Shown here piece after piece: positions 27,001-39,000 of a DNA stretch of 64,000 bases. Location: assembly GCA_964429275.1 (NCBI GenBank), contig CAYSBJ010000002.1, forward strand, positions 1 through 64,000. Direction: 5' to 3'. This DNA is from an uncultured Pseudomonadota bacterium. GTDB taxonomy: Bacteria; Babelota; Babeliae; Babelales; JAUPTZ01. The position numbers are program-made. The first letter of the stretch is position 1; every line of letters begins with the position of its first letter.

Positions 27001-30000
27001 TGCCACAAATATCAGTGCCAGCTTTGGTGCACTCTTTTGATTTTCATCCGTCGACCGCTCGTGATGCTTTGGAGGCACTGACGGATGCTGGCATCCTGAA
27101 GGAAATTACTGGCAAAAAGCGGGATCGGGTGTATGTGTACCAGCAGTATTTGGCTCTTCTTGAGGAAGAGTAGCGTCCGCTTCTGCATCCCCCAGCCACA
27201 CACCGGTGCGTATGAGGTGGTCAAGCTGGCGAAAGGTGCGGGTAGCGCAAAAAGTCTGTGACAACAGTTCCACGCGCCGGTAGAGAAAGAGTTTGCATGG
27301 GATGCCGCGCGCGGCGCAGACATCGCCGACTTCCTGCAGCACTGGTCCCATGTCATCAAAAAATACGATCATTGATGGTTTTATCTTTGCATAATCAAGA
27401 AATGCCCCAAGGACCGTGCCTTTATCTGTTTGATTGGTGCACAAAAGACCTTTGTGCAGCGTCGGGTAGTTGCCGCGAGACTGGGGCATGCAGCGGACGT
27501 TAGGATCTGGTTGTGAGTGTGACTTAGGTATGTGTGTATACTCCCTCACGGTTTTAAACGTGGTGTCTGGGTATGTGGTGTTAAATGTTACTCCCAGTTC
27601 CTTGAGTACTGAGTAGCGCCATTCTTCCGCGTGGGGGATGATGCCAAGCTTGCCGGTTAGCATGTTGGTAAGGCCCAGGACGGTTATATGTCGTTGTCTG
27701 AGTGAGTTAATAAGTTCTGAAATACCATCTTCAATGAGTACCCGCGGGGCCTGTAGGAATACGTGGCTTGCTAAATCTTCTTGCGCTGCTTTTTTGTATA
27801 AATGGGGAAATTTGATGAGTAATTGAATCCAAAACCACCAACTCAGGTCTGACTTTCTGACGTTTGCAAAAGAATCTGGCGCATAGGTGAGGGTGTCGTC
27901 TACATCAAACAATACCAAACTATTTTGATCAAGCGCGGTAAGCGTTTCGATGCACTGGGGGTCGGTGTATGAATAAATGCGGTGCACTGGATGGAGAGAG
28001 GTGAGGTCGATTATGTAGGAGATTAAACCGCATAAAAGAAGGAAGCCCGCAGCGCATTGCCAAAATCGCCACAGCATTTGTTTGCGTGTTTTCATGTTAT
28101 TTTTTTCTTAGTAGAGATCTCTTTGTGCTGATACATGGCTTACTCTTCAAATATACTTGTTTGAGAGCAATCTTACCGGTCGTTGCCCAGAAAAACAAGG
28201 AACTCCTCCTTGATTCCCGAAAAAAGCAGCCTCGCAGGATATGTTTCCCTGTGTCATTCGCCCAGTAGGAGCGGTTCTTGGAAGAATCGGGGGGCTTGAA
28301 CAAGTAGAAATGCTGGTTACATAGTGCTTTTTGCCGGATTTGGGGGGTTGCAAAACATGGTTTTTGGTATAGGCTATTCCATGCCGTTTGGCACGGTAGC
28401 TGAGATTTCAGCTGTAGTGTTTAATCAACTATTGAGGAGTAATCATTATGAAAGTGACTCAATCGGGATCCCCCCGTTTTAATGCTAAAGCACCAGGCAA
28501 AAAGCTGGTGTCAATTAACTGCAACAACCGTCAATGGGATGTTGAAGTACAAAATCTTAAAGAACTTGCTGAAGGCCCAGTCCTTTTTGTCCTTAATCAG
28601 GATGGAAATGGTTGGGCCTATGATTTTATTAACGCTTTTAAGTCTGCCTATACTGAATGGTCTGCTGATGGAAGTTTTCCTGAACATGACCATATTTTAA
28701 TGAATGAATCCCGTGGCGATCTTCAGAGTAAGCTGTATGAGCATCCGTTTATTCAAGGATTTTCTCGAAAGCCTGCGCGTATTATAACTGTTGGTGACGC
28801 TGCGAGCGCAGAAGTTGCTCGCTACCGTGTTGCATGGGGCTTAACCAGCTGTATTCAACAGCTCTTTTGTGTGATTGGTGACCCTGAAGCACTTGATTTG
28901 GTTGACATGAATGGTCAACTTTTGGCGAATACGAATGGTGTATATGCGGTTGAGGCACGTAGCCTTACTAAGCAAATTCGTTCACTGAGGAGTTTGAGCC
29001 GGGTTGTTAAAACAGTAGCTATTATTTCTGGGTATAGTGGTCGCTTTGATTCAATTGCTCTGCAAAAAGACAAAGCCGCTCAGAAGATTATTCAAGAGTG
29101 TGAGAAGTTTGGCATGCGAGCGTTGCGTGTTTATATGGTGGGGGATGAAAATATTGCTGGTTATCTTGAAGGTTTTGGCTCTGTGTGCGAAGCCGTCATC
29201 ACATTGCGTGATGACGCTGTCTATGGGCATCTGGACGAAATCGCAAGTTTCTGCACTAAAAATAGAATTATTCACTTTGCGTCCGAACTTTCCTCTGTAG
29301 CTCGCGGAGCAGCTATGGGATTTGGGAATGCGCCAGCGGCGTATGTGCCTTCACTTATGAATTTGATGTGGCAGCATAAGGAAACGCATCTGCCATTGAA
29401 TTCCTTTGAACTTGAAATTGTTGAAGAACCAATTGAGGTTCGACACAATATGAGCAGTATTCGTGCGCAAGTACGGGATCTGACTGAGGAAAAAGAAGAT
29501 TTGCTTGAAATGACGTCAATTCACGCAGTGTATTAAAAAGAATGTGAGGGGTGTGCCGTGAAGAGGGCGCGCCCCTCGATTGTTTGGTAACGAGAAAAAT
29601 ATATGAAACAATCGTCTCTCTTTCAGGATAAGTATCTTTACTTGGTGTGTAGTTTATTAGTGTTGTTGATTGCTGGATACTTGGCTATTCATGGTCGCTG
29701 GATCTTGCGCGAACCCTACGTCATAGTTATAACGAAAGATTCCCCATTTTTTAATGGAGTCTGTGAAGGGGTCAAGTCGATGCAAGCCCAGCAACGTGGG
29801 TGTAAGGTTACATTTAAATATGTTCCTGGTTGCGCAGACAGCGCTACTATTCAGCAAATTATTGAAGAAGTTATTAATGAACATCCTGACCTCATTATGC
29901 CGGTGGGAGTAACGCTATCTCAATTGTGTGTCAATCTAGTGAGTAAACGCCAATTGAACATACCGATAGTTTTCGCTGGTCCGGGAGACCCACTTAATCA

Positions 30001-36000: not shown

Positions 36001-39000
36001 CGAATTCTATGCTTGGATCTAATGCACGGTGTTTAGCCATTAATCAAACGGTTGCTACTCAGTACGGTATAAGATTTGATGGTCCTCTTTATAAAATCCT
36101 TAAAAATGGCGTCATTTTTGGTACTGCGTCATTTGATGAAACAGGTATTGTAGAAGGTTTTGATATTCCAGAACGCGAGGAGATTGATCTATGACTACTC
36201 CCAAAAGAATTGCAGTGCTTACTCGGGCCCGGTTTTCGTATCATTTGCAGCTAGGATGGGGATTTTTGGAGGCCATGAATCAGTGTCTTGATGATGTTGA
36301 CTCATGGATGCCTATCATGTTTATGTGCCGTGAAGTGCTCCCTGAAGTTATGCATGAACAAATGAAAGAAGCTACCTCTGGCAAATACGACCTTATTGTT
36401 TCTTTTGGGGCTTTATGGACCGATGTTGCTGCGAAATTTATTCGTGAAAATAGCATTAAAACGCCACTCGTTTTTGGAGGGGTTACTGATCCCGTTGCAC
36501 TGGGTGTATTGCCTGAATTAAGGTCTACGAATCAGATCACCGGCATATATAGAACGCCAGCCTCATGGACGGAGGTTGCAGAAATGTTGCATTATATTAA
36601 GCCTTCGATGAAGCGCATCCTTATCCCCTTTCGTGAGCATGCTGAAAATGGCCTCATTAAAAAAGCTCTTGAAGAGGTGCGAGATCGCTATGCTGAAGCT
36701 GGAGTGGAATGCATTTTGTTTCCGGTGACAAAGTTTCGTATTTGCCCGGAAGAGATTTATACGCTTCTTTTATCGGTAGATACATTATGGTCGTTTGAGG
36801 GGGGCTTCCTGGATATCTTTAGCAGCTCGATGATTGAGATATGTAATATGCGCCATATTACTTTCTTTTCGAATAATGCGGCTCATATTGCGCAAGGCGC
36901 TGCACTGGTGTATGCCGCTCCTGACTTTAGCGTCATGGGAGAGGCGCTGCTGAAACAGATGTACCAAATTCTTGAGGAGGGCAAAAAGCCTGAAGAGGTC
37001 GATATCATCAAATTACCGGATGACCGGCGCATGATGGTGAACCTTGAAGCTGCAAAACTACAGGGACTTGACCTTGATAAAGTGCTCTTAATGGCCATGC
37101 GTAATGGGTTAATGATTATTAAATAGCCTCTGTTGGTTGTGGGAATGCAATGACTGAAAAGAAGAGTCTTTTTATAGGTTTTTTAATAACGTCTGTTGTG
37201 GGGCTGTTTGTCGGGCGTTATGTAGTGCCATACAAGGATCTAGTAATGACGCGTAAGCTCCGAAAGAATGTAGCAATTCTTACAAAGCCTTTTGAATACC
37301 ATCAGCAAGTTCTGCATGGTGCGTTAACTACGTTAGGCCTTGAGCAACGAGTGGATCTATTCCCTGATGTTTACACCGCGACTGGTGATCAAATCAGTGA
37401 GAAAAATATTGTTGAAGAGGCGCTGGCCGCAAAACCAGACCTTGTTCTTGCCATTGGTGCTGGCCTTGCTCAAGTGGCCAAAAACACCATTCAAAAGAGG
37501 CGTTTGCCAATTCCTCTGGTGTTTGCGGGAGCAACAGACCCGGTGGCCCTTGGATTGGTTGATTCAGTGGAAGTGCCGGGGTGCAATGTAACCGGCTCAA
37601 ACATGCTTCCGTATGATCGGGTGCTGATGGTGAAGTACCTTTTACTTCTGCTGCCGCACATAAGACGCATAGGGTTGCCATACACTGCTCAAACATCAAG
37701 TGTGGACATAGAGATCCATGCGCAGGAAATTAAGGAATACTGCGCCGCGCGTGGCGTTGAGGTTATATTGTTGCCTATTGATGTTCCAGAGGCCAATGGA
37801 CTTCAGTTGGTACAAGGGATTATTAATCAAATAGATGCGTTAATTTACCTTCCGGTATGTTACGTGTGCAAAATTGCCAGTGGTCTGGTGAAGTTGTGTG
37901 CTGAGCATCATGTTGTTTTGTGTGCGGGTGACGAGTCGGCTTTTGCCAACGATGAAGATGGTGCACCGTTTTCGTATGGGCCGCGCGCAGGGTTAACTGG
38001 AAAGTATGCCGCAGAGCAAGTCAAAAAAATTCTTGTTGAGGGACAGTCTGCTGCCAGGATGCCGGTTCAATATGTTGAACGTGGCTGTCGATTTGCGATC
38101 AATCTGAATGCGCTAAAAAAGCAAGATATTGCTATAAATCCAGATTTATTGCTACTTATTTCCCATGGTGAAGTTCTTAAGGACGGCGTTGAATGGTAAA
38201 AGGCACTGTTGCATCCTATCCTTGAGGGGCCATTTCTTTGTATGAAAAACGGCTTATCAACCGTATTATTCTAGCATCACGTGCGATTGATGCAACCTGC
38301 CGTCGCTAGCCTCATGGCTGGTTGTTATGCCAATTGCAGCCAAAAAGTCATAATCGTGTGAAATGACGAGCAACGCTCCCGGGTATTCTTTGAGCACTTC
38401 AATAATGTGTTGCCGCGTCTCCAGATCAAGATTATTGGTGACTTCATCCAGAATGAGGAGTTTGGGGGCGCGGGCGCCAATCAGTGCTACGCTCGCAACC
38501 GCCTTCGATACTACGGTGTGTCTCGCCTTGGCCCCCAAAGGGGCGACGGCGGATGACCCGCAAAGTGCGTCTTGAAAATTAACATTGACCCGTTATAACG
38601 CGTCTGCATAATAATGTTTTGTTGCTCAAAAGAACCTTTCGGGCGTTTTTTCATGCTTAAATATGAAATGTATCTGCGATAGCCTCGGGCCAGGGTACCC
38701 CAAGGAGCGAGTTCGGCTTTTTGCACAGCAAAAAACGCATGTTTGAGCGGGAGGGGCACCCCTGGTCGGGCGCAGCAGCCTTTATGGGTTCAATGCCACG
38801 GGGGGTCCTTTTGCTATTTTCCCCCTTCTATGCTACCTTTTCCCCCCGTTACCAGGAGTTTTAAAAAGGAGTCTGATCTATGAACGTTGAAAAGATAGTA
38901 GTGCGAGGTGCACGCGAGCATAACCTTCGTTCGGTGAATGTCGAGATTCCTAAAAACAAGCTGGTTATCATTACAGGGCCGTCCGGTTCCGGCAAGAGTT

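Follow-up and report, generated by a model that had tools for sequence, protein, structure and literature searches.

TrpX-like binding-protein paralogues, most of them leaderless, in repeatedly copied cassettes of one genus of Babelales

Related systems and spread of the family

TrpX, CD0873 and VC_1101, of TrpXYZ-like importers, are binding proteins of the PF04392 family, and in the passages of PMC10443332 and PMC6816091 that deal with ligands the solved members of the family bind L-Trp, L-Tyr and L-Phe. The nine genes described here share fold and family with these proteins, and the products of three of them (P2, P6 and P9) score 91-107 bits with the family profile. They differ from TrpX and its relatives in that six of the nine carry no export signal, the cassettes in which they lie contain no transporter genes, the PTDN loop is replaced by L-E-G in all paralogues, and the operons hold several paralogues predicted to heterodimerise.

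Expansion of a single binding-protein family is also found in the TTT/Bug systems, whose genes are scattered and are not known to form fixed multi-subfamily cassettes. The parts of PMC5994714 and PMC11452294 that treat these expansions report the Bug proteins of Bordetella and, for Rhodoplanes sp. Z2-YC6860, 434 genes encoding TTT binding proteins, and as presented there the likeness is a lineage-specific excess of one family far above the matching membrane components. TTT/Bug proteins are described as periplasmic in a passage of PMC11452294, whereas most members here are leaderless. Their fold family is that of TctC, whereas the Pfam matches of the cassette proteins in the window are all to PF04392 and include none to TctC (PF03401). 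Moreover, theirs are large genomes, whereas here the family takes up about 5% of the genes in 1.2 Mb.

AmiC of Pseudomonas aeruginosa and the cores of LacI-family repressors are cytoplasmic, dimeric sensors with a type-I binding-protein fold. They resemble the leaderless products in having a periplasmic-binding-protein fold without leader and in binding small molecules within the cell, as is proposed here, but they belong to a different Pfam family, and the sets considered here would be heteromeric and include a membrane-anchored paralogue. No regulator, DNA- or RNA-binding domain or AmiR-like partner was found in or beside the cassettes. In Borrelia, BmpA-D (PnrA-like, PF02608) are tandem lipoprotein paralogues of the surface or periplasm. 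As in this case, several type-I binding proteins that are paralogues of one another have adjacent genes, and the genome is small and belongs to a host-dependent bacterium; however, the Bmp proteins are all lipoproteins of one cluster, none of them leaderless, whereas here there are nine clusters with leaderless members.

The window analysed comprises the first 64,000 nucleotides of contig CAYSBJ010000002.1 (here C2; assembly GCA_964429275.1), from an uncultured bacterium of the Babelales. A six-frame search of its genome with PF04392 gave 42 matches at E<=1e-3, including 37 at E<=1e-8, the very figure given by an earlier survey; 38 exceeded the Pfam cut-off. An iterated HMM of our own extended the family to 53 ORFs, in line with the roughly 51 genes of the survey's finding: one canonical binding protein, encoded beside an ABC ATPase and a permease, and 52 divergent paralogues, most of them held by nine cassettes. 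In a sample of 61 genomes of the order, the matches numbered at least 32 in G000, 29 in G018, 15 in G052 and 7 in G036, and 0-3 in each of the 57 others. When 230 genomes of the phylum (>=80% complete) were scanned, the four belonging to the genus yielded 46, 37, 21 and 12 first-look candidates, and the 226 outside it seven at most, with 0-4 matches each and no expansion. The expansion is restricted to one genus, being seen in its four scanned genomes, and both samples agree with the genus specificity that had been claimed.

The nine genes and an inserted cassette

Positions 28448-38199 hold nine intact ORFs with the TrpX-like fold, all on the forward strand. P1 (28448-29536, 362 amino acids) and P5 (32989-34071, 360) are leaderless members of the first-position subfamily (pos1-II) with 47% identity between them. 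P1 has about 45 additional N-terminal residues and a divergent PF04392 fold, and P5 is almost identical to the gene that opens the cassette at C2:105614. The anchored subfamily TMa is represented by P2 (29603-30631, 342 amino acids, 106.6 bits), with a hydrophobic segment at residues 11-31, and by P6 (34138-35151, 337 amino acids, 91.3 bits), and the anchored subfamily TMb by P9 (37150-38199, 349 amino acids, 101.9 bits). P3 (30621-31592, 323 amino acids) and P7 (35151-36194, 347 amino acids) belong to the leaderless third-position subfamily (pos3), and P4 (31589-32557, 322 amino acids) and P8 (36191-37126, 311 amino acids) to the leaderless fourth-position subfamily (pos4). In the tree the first-position clade that includes P1 had an SH-aLRT of 98, and the TMa (P2, P6) and TMb (P9) clades a support of 100. 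The GTG start of P3, with an SD-like AAGGAG 9 nt on its 5' side, overlaps the stop codon of P2, and the starts of P4, P7 (TGATG) and P8 (ATGA) overlap the stops of P3, P6 and P7, respectively. With these overlaps and SD-like motifs, the cassette genes are translationally coupled.

Six of the nine proteins exceed the PF04392 gathering cut-off of 25.9 bits, and P7 (22.7), P5 (15.6) and P1 (13) fall below it. The two-lobed type-I fold was checked on a model of P1, which had been said to fold like the rest despite its weak Pfam score. The AF2 model (pLDDT 78.2, pTM 0.74) bears this out: its best Foldseek matches in the PDB were three solved PF04392 structures, 3lkv, 6hni and 3lft (E 2.6e-10 to 5.6e-10, TM (target) 0.72-0.74), and LacI-family cores were also among the matches. 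The cassette members have a common binding-protein fold. Throughout the genome PF04392 was matched at E<=1e-3 by 21 of 21 anchored ORFs (36.5-110 bits) versus 20 of 31 leaderless ones, and hence the anchored ORFs are nearest to the canonical profile. None of the nine proteins matched a PADLOC anti-phage defence model at E<=0.01.

The nine cassettes and their two fixed gene orders, as first reported, were recovered genome-wide. The subfamilies in the tree are specific to cassette position, which implies that whole cassettes were copied, and the same orders occur in a second species with 52-59% identity to P1 and P4. The survey's finding of two cassettes in tandem at this locus, by contrast, has to be revised, since the nine genes form a five-gene cassette (P1-P4 and P9) interrupted by a four-gene one (P5-P8). 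In the sister species G061 the P9 orthologue begins about 20 nt after that of P4, and in an X7 contig, an independent but related one from a metagenome, position 32553 is joined to 37149, skipping 4595 nt; X1 and X2 contigs span the 4.6-kb segment without differences. Its absence from the sister species and from the related metagenome contig marks the segment (32554-37148: spacer, second copy of a 222-bp repeat and P5-P8) as an inserted cassette. The first cassette thus has P9 as its ancestral fifth gene, and one cassette has been gained recently.

The copies of the 222-bp repeat, a duplicate of the promoter region, are 99.55% identical; the first (28156-28377, forward strand) lies in the divergent intergenic region 5' of P1 and the second (32702-32923, forward strand) 5' of P5. 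The first ends with the 26-nt motif TTGCAAAACATGGTTTTTGGTATAGG (28348-28373, forward strand), which contains the extended -10-like site TGgTATAGG and occurs exactly three times in the genome, each time 70-75 nt upstream of the first gene of a type-II cassette. Directly 3' of the P1 stop is a GC-rich hairpin of 13 bp (29545-29578, forward strand; z -6.1) and directly 3' of the P5 stop one of 14 bp (34076-34113, forward strand; z -4.1); a hairpin stands at this place in all four type-II cassettes, with differing sequences.

Such near-identical repeats, together with a resemblance, in a mosaic pattern, to the cassette spanning C2:105440-107859, could be expected if the copies were selfish or decaying duplicates produced by repeat recombination and had little or no function. 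The differing copy number among close species points the same way, as do some broken or shortened members, namely a first gene that is split (C2:293807-294877) and, at C2:290725 and C2:106763, short ORFs. Nevertheless, all nine ORFs at the locus are intact, and the dN/dS values of four genes against the sister species, between 0.055 and 0.144 (P3 0.072, P4 0.055, P9 0.136), indicate purifying selection. In addition, subfamily-specific motifs are retained between paralogues of just 33-36% identity, and cassette order persists in the second species at the divergence given above. Decay is consequently a quite improbable account of these genes.

Leaders, anchors and the side of the membrane

An N-terminal hydrophobic anchor is present in three of the nine proteins, P2, P6 and P9. 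The remaining six have no hydrophobic N-terminus, nor is there room for one: from the upstream in-frame stop to the first start codon there are 4 (P1), 10, 1, 10, 30 and 1 codons, none of these stretches being hydrophobic. Over the 31 leaderless ORFs of the genome this room is 8 codons at the median and never more than 38; four of the 31, all outside the window, have an ambiguous hydrophobic N-terminus. Six of the nine window genes, therefore, are without any possible leader, and the survey was right that mis-called starts do not explain the leaderless members. Its statement that most members are leaderless also stands, with 31 of the 52 paralogues, although this amounts to only about 60%. The annotation of the family as extracytoplasmic binding proteins would favour export of all members by leaders that the ORF calls had missed, an idea made very unlikely indeed by the close upstream stops and by the fold itself, whose first beta strand begins 5-25 residues past the start codon.

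The genome has exactly two BPD_transp_2 permeases, consistent with the two matching transporter sets previously counted. One belongs to the canonical system of the same window (9757-12484, forward strand), which consists of the PF04392 binding protein (9757-10755, 157 bits), the ABC ATPase (10758-11489) and the permease (11648-12484). None of the nine cassettes has a permease next to it, the canonical gene being the only one that adjoins one, and no binding-protein gene was found beside the other set, at C3:192101-193779.

The anchored members might themselves lie on the cytoplasmic face, with the N-terminus out, the C-terminus in and the domain tethered inside the cell, where they would form a heteromeric sensor, sink or scaffold complex with the leaderless subunits. 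Shared operons and coupled genes would suit one complex in one compartment. Positive charge seemed to agree: K/R residues after the anchor averaged 3.67 in the family versus 1.76 in 194 other signal-bearing ORFs (Mann-Whitney p 1.9e-5), and exceeded those before it in 9 of the 12 family ORFs scored. The charge argument failed its control, however, since canonical, transporter-linked binding proteins from 16 other Babelales genomes share the trait (2.8 after versus 2.2 before the anchor; more after than before in 11 of 17), and nearly all anchors of the family open with a K/R-bearing n-region like that of ordinary signal anchors. Cysteine makes up 1.99% of the anchored domains, as much as in the leaderless proteins (1.90%) and more than in other signal-bearing ORFs (0.90%), which shared ancestry alone could explain. 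The C-terminal tails are lengthened both in type-I anchored members (median 29 residues) and in their leaderless neighbours (30.5), and such tails make up the predicted interface between P3 and P4. On balance this arrangement is a tentative one.

Paired subunits, pocket loops and proposed function

The pairing of P3 and P4, whose genes are adjacent, was the one complex modelled, from shallow alignments of our own with 8 and 9 rows. It scored 0.85 (runs 0.88, 0.85 and 0.84) versus 0.00 for the best control, with at least 99% contact agreement between runs and a partner pLDDT of at least 82; of 157 solved complexes 116 reached the mark used with this tool, as did 2 of 215 mismatched pairs, although same-family paralogues can pass such a test through likeness. 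The model thus supports a heterodimer of the two leaderless products joined through their C-terminal tails, that of P3 being long and acidic.

Besides ankyrin, LRR and Fic proteins, typical host-directed products of intracellular bacteria that the window also encodes, the confinement of the family to one host-dependent lineage could suggest that the leaderless members are effectors, exported into the host cell independently of Sec to bind host metabolites or proteins. Yet the cassettes have neither a secretion signal nor a secretion-system gene linked to them, the leaderless genes are encoded and coupled with membrane-anchored paralogues, the fold is of a bacterial and not of a eukaryote-like kind, and two of the products are predicted to pair with each other, all of which makes such a role unlikely.

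The loops conserved in canonical PF04392 proteins remain conserved inside each subfamily across paralogous cassettes, TKDSPFFN being found in five of five TMa and GVTDP in six of six pos4 members, including P4. The TDP loop is kept by most TMb proteins and lost in pos3 (GVTNY, as in P3, or GVERP). Of these loops it is only PTDN that a paper ties to the ligand pocket, in the passage of PMC6816091 on Val-235/Pro-236. With PTDN replaced and, according to alignment mapping, the side-chain-specificity positions Glu-263 and Tyr-279 of CD0873 not kept, aromatic amino acids as ligands of the paralogues are a guess.

As most copies lack an export signal, these probably work within the cell in the form of paired subunits and not as nutrient catchers of the ordinary kind. 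We give a probability of about one half to a reading in which a lineage-specific TrpX-like subunit operon has been copied repeatedly and would no longer be a simple transporter accessory. Each cassette combines a divergent leaderless first-position member, one or two anchored members and one or two further leaderless ones. As orphan binding proteins, the anchored members would sit on the outer side of the inner membrane and serve the genome's two ABC permeases of TrpYZ type, one of which lacks its own binding-protein gene; this tie to the permeases would follow from family membership alone. The leaderless members would remain in the cytoplasm as heteromeric small-molecule binding units, probably for amino-acid-like ligands, and would receive, hold or sense molecules supplied by the host. 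In such units pos4 keeps the TDP loop that is conserved in the pocket region, and pos3, deprived of it, would be a non-binding partner.

It is more doubtful that every cassette member is on the cytoplasmic side, in a membrane-tethered hetero-oligomer assembled through the C-terminal tails for the capture or sensing of metabolites. If this were true, the cassettes would encode a previously undescribed intracellular machine, amplified nine-fold, whose copies are still being gained in an obligate host-dependent bacterium.

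Family identity, reading frames and genome-wide copies

Nine open reading frames of 311-362 aa, P1 to P9, occupy positions 28448-38199 of the + strand, with gaps of no more than 66 nt except for one 431-nt spacer. Six of the nine proteins exceed the Pfam cut-off of PF04392 (ABC_sub_bind); P7 lies just below it (22.7 bits), and P5 (15.6 bits) and P1 (13 bits) are far below. In NCBIfam the tryptophan binding protein TrpX is the sole match for P2-P4, P6, P8 and P9, far under its cut-off, and P1, P5 and P7 show no TrpX match. The AF2 model of P1, built from a 10-row alignment of first-position genes, reached a pLDDT of 78.2 and has as its top PDB matches, at target TM values of 0.72-0.74, 3lkv, 6hni and 3lft, which are the three solved PF04392 proteins. 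The ESM Atlas, searched by features, gave a concordant result. Hence, from the Pfam and NCBIfam matches, the PDB matches of the P1 model and the ESM Atlas agreement, all of P1-P9 are members of one fold family. No PADLOC model matched any of the nine, and Rfam, applied to the whole window, found only three tRNAs; a 222-bp repeat was without any family match.

P2, P6 and P9 each carry one N-terminal hydrophobic segment, and the other six proteins carry none. With the start taken as the first ATG, GTG or TTG downstream of a stop codon, the stop-to-start room upstream of the six leaderless window genes is 4, 10, 1, 10, 30 and 1 codons, none of it hydrophobic; genome-wide, the 31 leaderless ORFs have a median of 8 and a maximum of 38 codons of such room, and the ambiguous hydrophobic N-termini, four among these 31, all lie outside the window. 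Gene junctions are formed by stop/start overlaps (TGATG, ATGA) with SD-like GGAGG or GAGGAG before them, which argues that the called start codons are credible and that the window genes are translationally coupled.

A six-frame PF04392 search of the same genome gave 42 matches at E<=1e-3 and, at the stricter E<=1e-8, 37; a profile HMM seeded with the nine window proteins and iterated over every ORF of 100 aa or more converged on 53 family ORFs: one canonical, 21 anchored paralogs and 31 leaderless, the last including two halves of one split gene. Next after the canonical binding-protein gene (9757-10755, 157 bits) come genes for an ABC ATPase and for a BPD_transp_2 permease; only two permeases of this kind occur in the genome. 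The second permease/ATPase pair (C3:192101-193779; minus strand, 3101-4779 of extracted locus L043) adjoins FtsY-like and PrmC-like genes and has no binding-protein gene beside it. Five cassettes are of type I, in the order first-position gene (pos1), leaderless, anchored, and four are of type II, in the order pos1, anchored, pos3, pos4, often with a second anchored gene; family members outside these nine cassettes occur singly or in a small number of divergent groups. Signs of decay were observed in three places of the genome: a first-position gene split into 203-aa and 141-aa ORFs (C2:293807-294877), an N-terminally short member of 264 aa (C2:290725-291519) and a copy of the first anchored subfamily (TMa) that ends about 29 residues early (C2:106763-107689).

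Position-specific subfamilies, pairing and ligand pocket

In a maximum-likelihood tree of 51 family members the proteins group by cassette position and not by cassette. The first-position clade (10 rows, all leaderless) has an SH-aLRT support of 98, and the pos3 (P3, P7), pos4 (P4, P8) and type-I second-position clades have 93, 99 and 99. The 15 anchored members form a clade with support 82, within which TMa (P2, P6) and TMb (P9) are sub-clades at 100 each; eight divergent members are not placed by the tree owing to long branches. Whole cassettes were thus copied together. The same gene orders occur in a second species of the genus, whose counterparts of P1 and P4 are 52-59% identical to those of the window. 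Comparison with the sister-species genome G061, about 87% identical in nucleotides over the compared blocks and 83-95% per gene, gave dN/dS values of 0.072 (P3), 0.055 (P4), 0.136 (P9) and, for as much of P2 as could be compared, 0.144. None of the sequences contained a stop, and the genes are accordingly functional and under strong purifying selection.

Complex modelling was applied to one pair, P3 and P4, products of adjacent and always coupled leaderless genes, using alignments of 8 and 9 rows. The model scored 0.85 and the best of three controls 0.00; in calibration 116 of 157 solved complexes, but just 2 of 215 mismatched pairs, attained the score mark. The runs showed at least 99% contact agreement, with partner pLDDT of at least 82. 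The modelled interface involves a helix near residues 131-149 in both chains together with the C-terminal tails (P3 279-322, P4 292-322), and the tails of pos3 and type-I members exceed those of canonical proteins by 10-25 residues. The model supports binding of P3 to P4 short of demonstrating it, and a pass between paralogs may also reflect an interface common to the family and not this specific pair.

Conserved loops were mapped through the 6hni alignment and the residues named in PMC6816091. The canonical loops are QTASHPALD, AVTDP and APTDN. In all paralogs PTDN is replaced by L-E-G, and GVTDP is kept in pos4 and most TMb members and lost in pos3. Within each subfamily these loops are near-invariant across cassettes. 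Such a pattern is compatible with a site that some subunits conserve in altered form and that is degenerate in pos3. The genus's canonical binding protein (9757-10755 and locus L039) itself has VGSSG in place of the PTDN-like loop of 15 other Babelales orthologs.

A probable cassette insertion and the putative regulatory elements

The window locus differs from that of its close relatives by a 4.6-kb segment. In G061 the P9 ortholog lies about 20 nt after the P4 ortholog and the counterpart of window 32554-37148 is missing; likewise, a 36.7-kb contig from an unrelated wastewater run (X7), 90-95% alike, joins 32553 to 37149 and skips 4595 nt. Contigs of X1 and X2 span the extra segment and the P8-P9 junction with no differences. 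At its start the segment repeats, at 99.55% identity, 222 bp of the sequence that precedes P1. Over the first 2.4 kb it shares 86-89% identity with the cassette at C2:105440-107859, and over the remainder only about 66%. Since the joints in G061 and X7, the 222-bp copy, the mosaic identity and the five-gene order pos1-TMa-pos3-pos4-TMb, found also at C2:105614-110778, all point this way, positions 28448-38199 are read as a five-gene cassette of that order into which a mosaic four-gene cassette would have been inserted. Deletion of the segment in the relatives, instead of insertion here, is a possible alternative course. In the X7 contig, moreover, positions 27306-28328 (the end of a DUF2608 gene and most of the 222-bp repeat) are replaced by 1023 unlike letters, and likeness returns at 28328, just ahead of a 26-nt motif.

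This motif, with an extended -10-like TGgTATAGG, has exactly three copies in the genome (window 28348-28373 and 32894-32919, and C2:105519-105544), which all stand 70-75 nt ahead of the first gene of a type-II cassette, and is a candidate shared promoter or operator. A sigma-70 scan found 16 sites against 18.4 expected and gives no support for promoters on its own. Each of the four type-II cassettes has, immediately 3' of the stop codon that ends its first gene, a strong GC-rich hairpin of 13-14 bp, unrelated in sequence to the others (z of -6.1, -4.1, -4.1 and -2.7), at window 29545-29578 and 34076-34113 and at about 2200-2240 and 2140-2175 of the extracted loci L006 and L004; type-I cassettes have no room for one after the first gene. 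Hairpins follow the binding-protein genes of classical ABC operons and, by analogy, the type-II hairpin may raise the first protein over the other cassette proteins.

Membrane side, distribution and significance

The K/R count after the anchor is 3.67 in the family, compared with 1.76 for 194 other signal-bearing ORFs (p 1.9e-5), taken over the 12 of 22 anchored ORFs that passed the filter of no later hydrophobic segment, one of the 12 being the canonical gene. However, a control set of 17 canonical binding proteins with linked transporter genes, drawn from 16 further Babelales genomes, presents the same charge pattern. The excess was therefore dropped as evidence for a cytoplasmic orientation, the charge test cannot decide the side, and a model in which the anchored members face the cytoplasm is hence retained as a rival only. 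The Cys content of anchored members equals that of their leaderless paralogs, with 1.22% in canonical orthologs, a trend in the same direction as the cytoplasmic idea but confounded by shared ancestry. The anchor of the genus's canonical binding protein (9757-10755 and locus L039) is without the K/R-rich segment of other Babelales orthologs.

In an order sample of 61 genomes searched with PF04392 at E<=1e-8, the four genus genomes had 32 (at the least), 29, 15 and 7 matches and the 57 others 0-3. In a phylum sample of 230 genomes at least 80% complete, first-look candidates numbered 46, 37, 21 and 12 in the four genus genomes, and none of the 226 outside the genus exceeded 7 candidates or 4 matches. 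Within these samples the expansion is restricted to one genus. Searched against 1.84 billion representatives, a profile of the first-position subfamily matched 75 clusters at E<=1e-30, and the N-terminal hydrophobic segment is absent from all of the best 64 of the 75, which indicates that this leaderless subfamily has further uncultured relatives. A species-genome scan with a closer alignment, A2, found three loci, all in Candidatus Dependentiae MAGs and nowhere else. For P4, a search of proteins 565-2000 residues long turned up no fused pos3-pos4 or longer form; the evidence is weak, and the near-length search gave five matches only. Two single polypeptides from the representative search, P0054 (1261 aa) and P0105 (1260 aa), contain four PF04392 domains each, one of them with an N-terminal anchor; they were rejected as fusions of these subfamilies because each domain scores about 150 bits, like canonical members.

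Genes typical of host-associated bacteria neighbour the cassettes in the window, namely LRR, ankyrin (two large genes), Fic and AbiEii-like genes (310-4116, 16709-19267, 22359-25574, 26022-27173, 20937-21668). Outside the window, four contigs of 4.2-12.6 kb, C4-C7, have a G+C of 0.60-0.70 against 0.46 in the three large contigs and are probably bin contaminants.

PF04392 is the closest known family, although its defining location and transporter linkage are lacking in most members here. As a phenomenon, it most resembles the Bug/TTT expansion, whose orphan binding proteins differ in being periplasmic and of another family. No description of the present expansion was found in the literature on PF04392/ABC_sub_bind, on Dependentiae/Babelales paralogs or on the Bug family. 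In textbooks the binding proteins of ABC importers work outside the cytoplasm, and AmiC, a cytoplasmic protein of the binding-protein fold, is a functional precedent for the leaderless members. In this 1.2-Mb genome about 5% of the genes are paralogs of one binding-protein family, most of which cannot be exported, arranged in fixed multi-subunit operons with predicted pairing. Close relatives with and without the 4.6-kb cassette offer a natural experiment on what it contributes to fitness. If the cytoplasmic members bind small molecules, they would provide a new, naturally heterodimeric binding-protein-fold scaffold for sensor engineering, and would show how a host-dependent bacterium with little biosynthesis handles nutrients after uptake.
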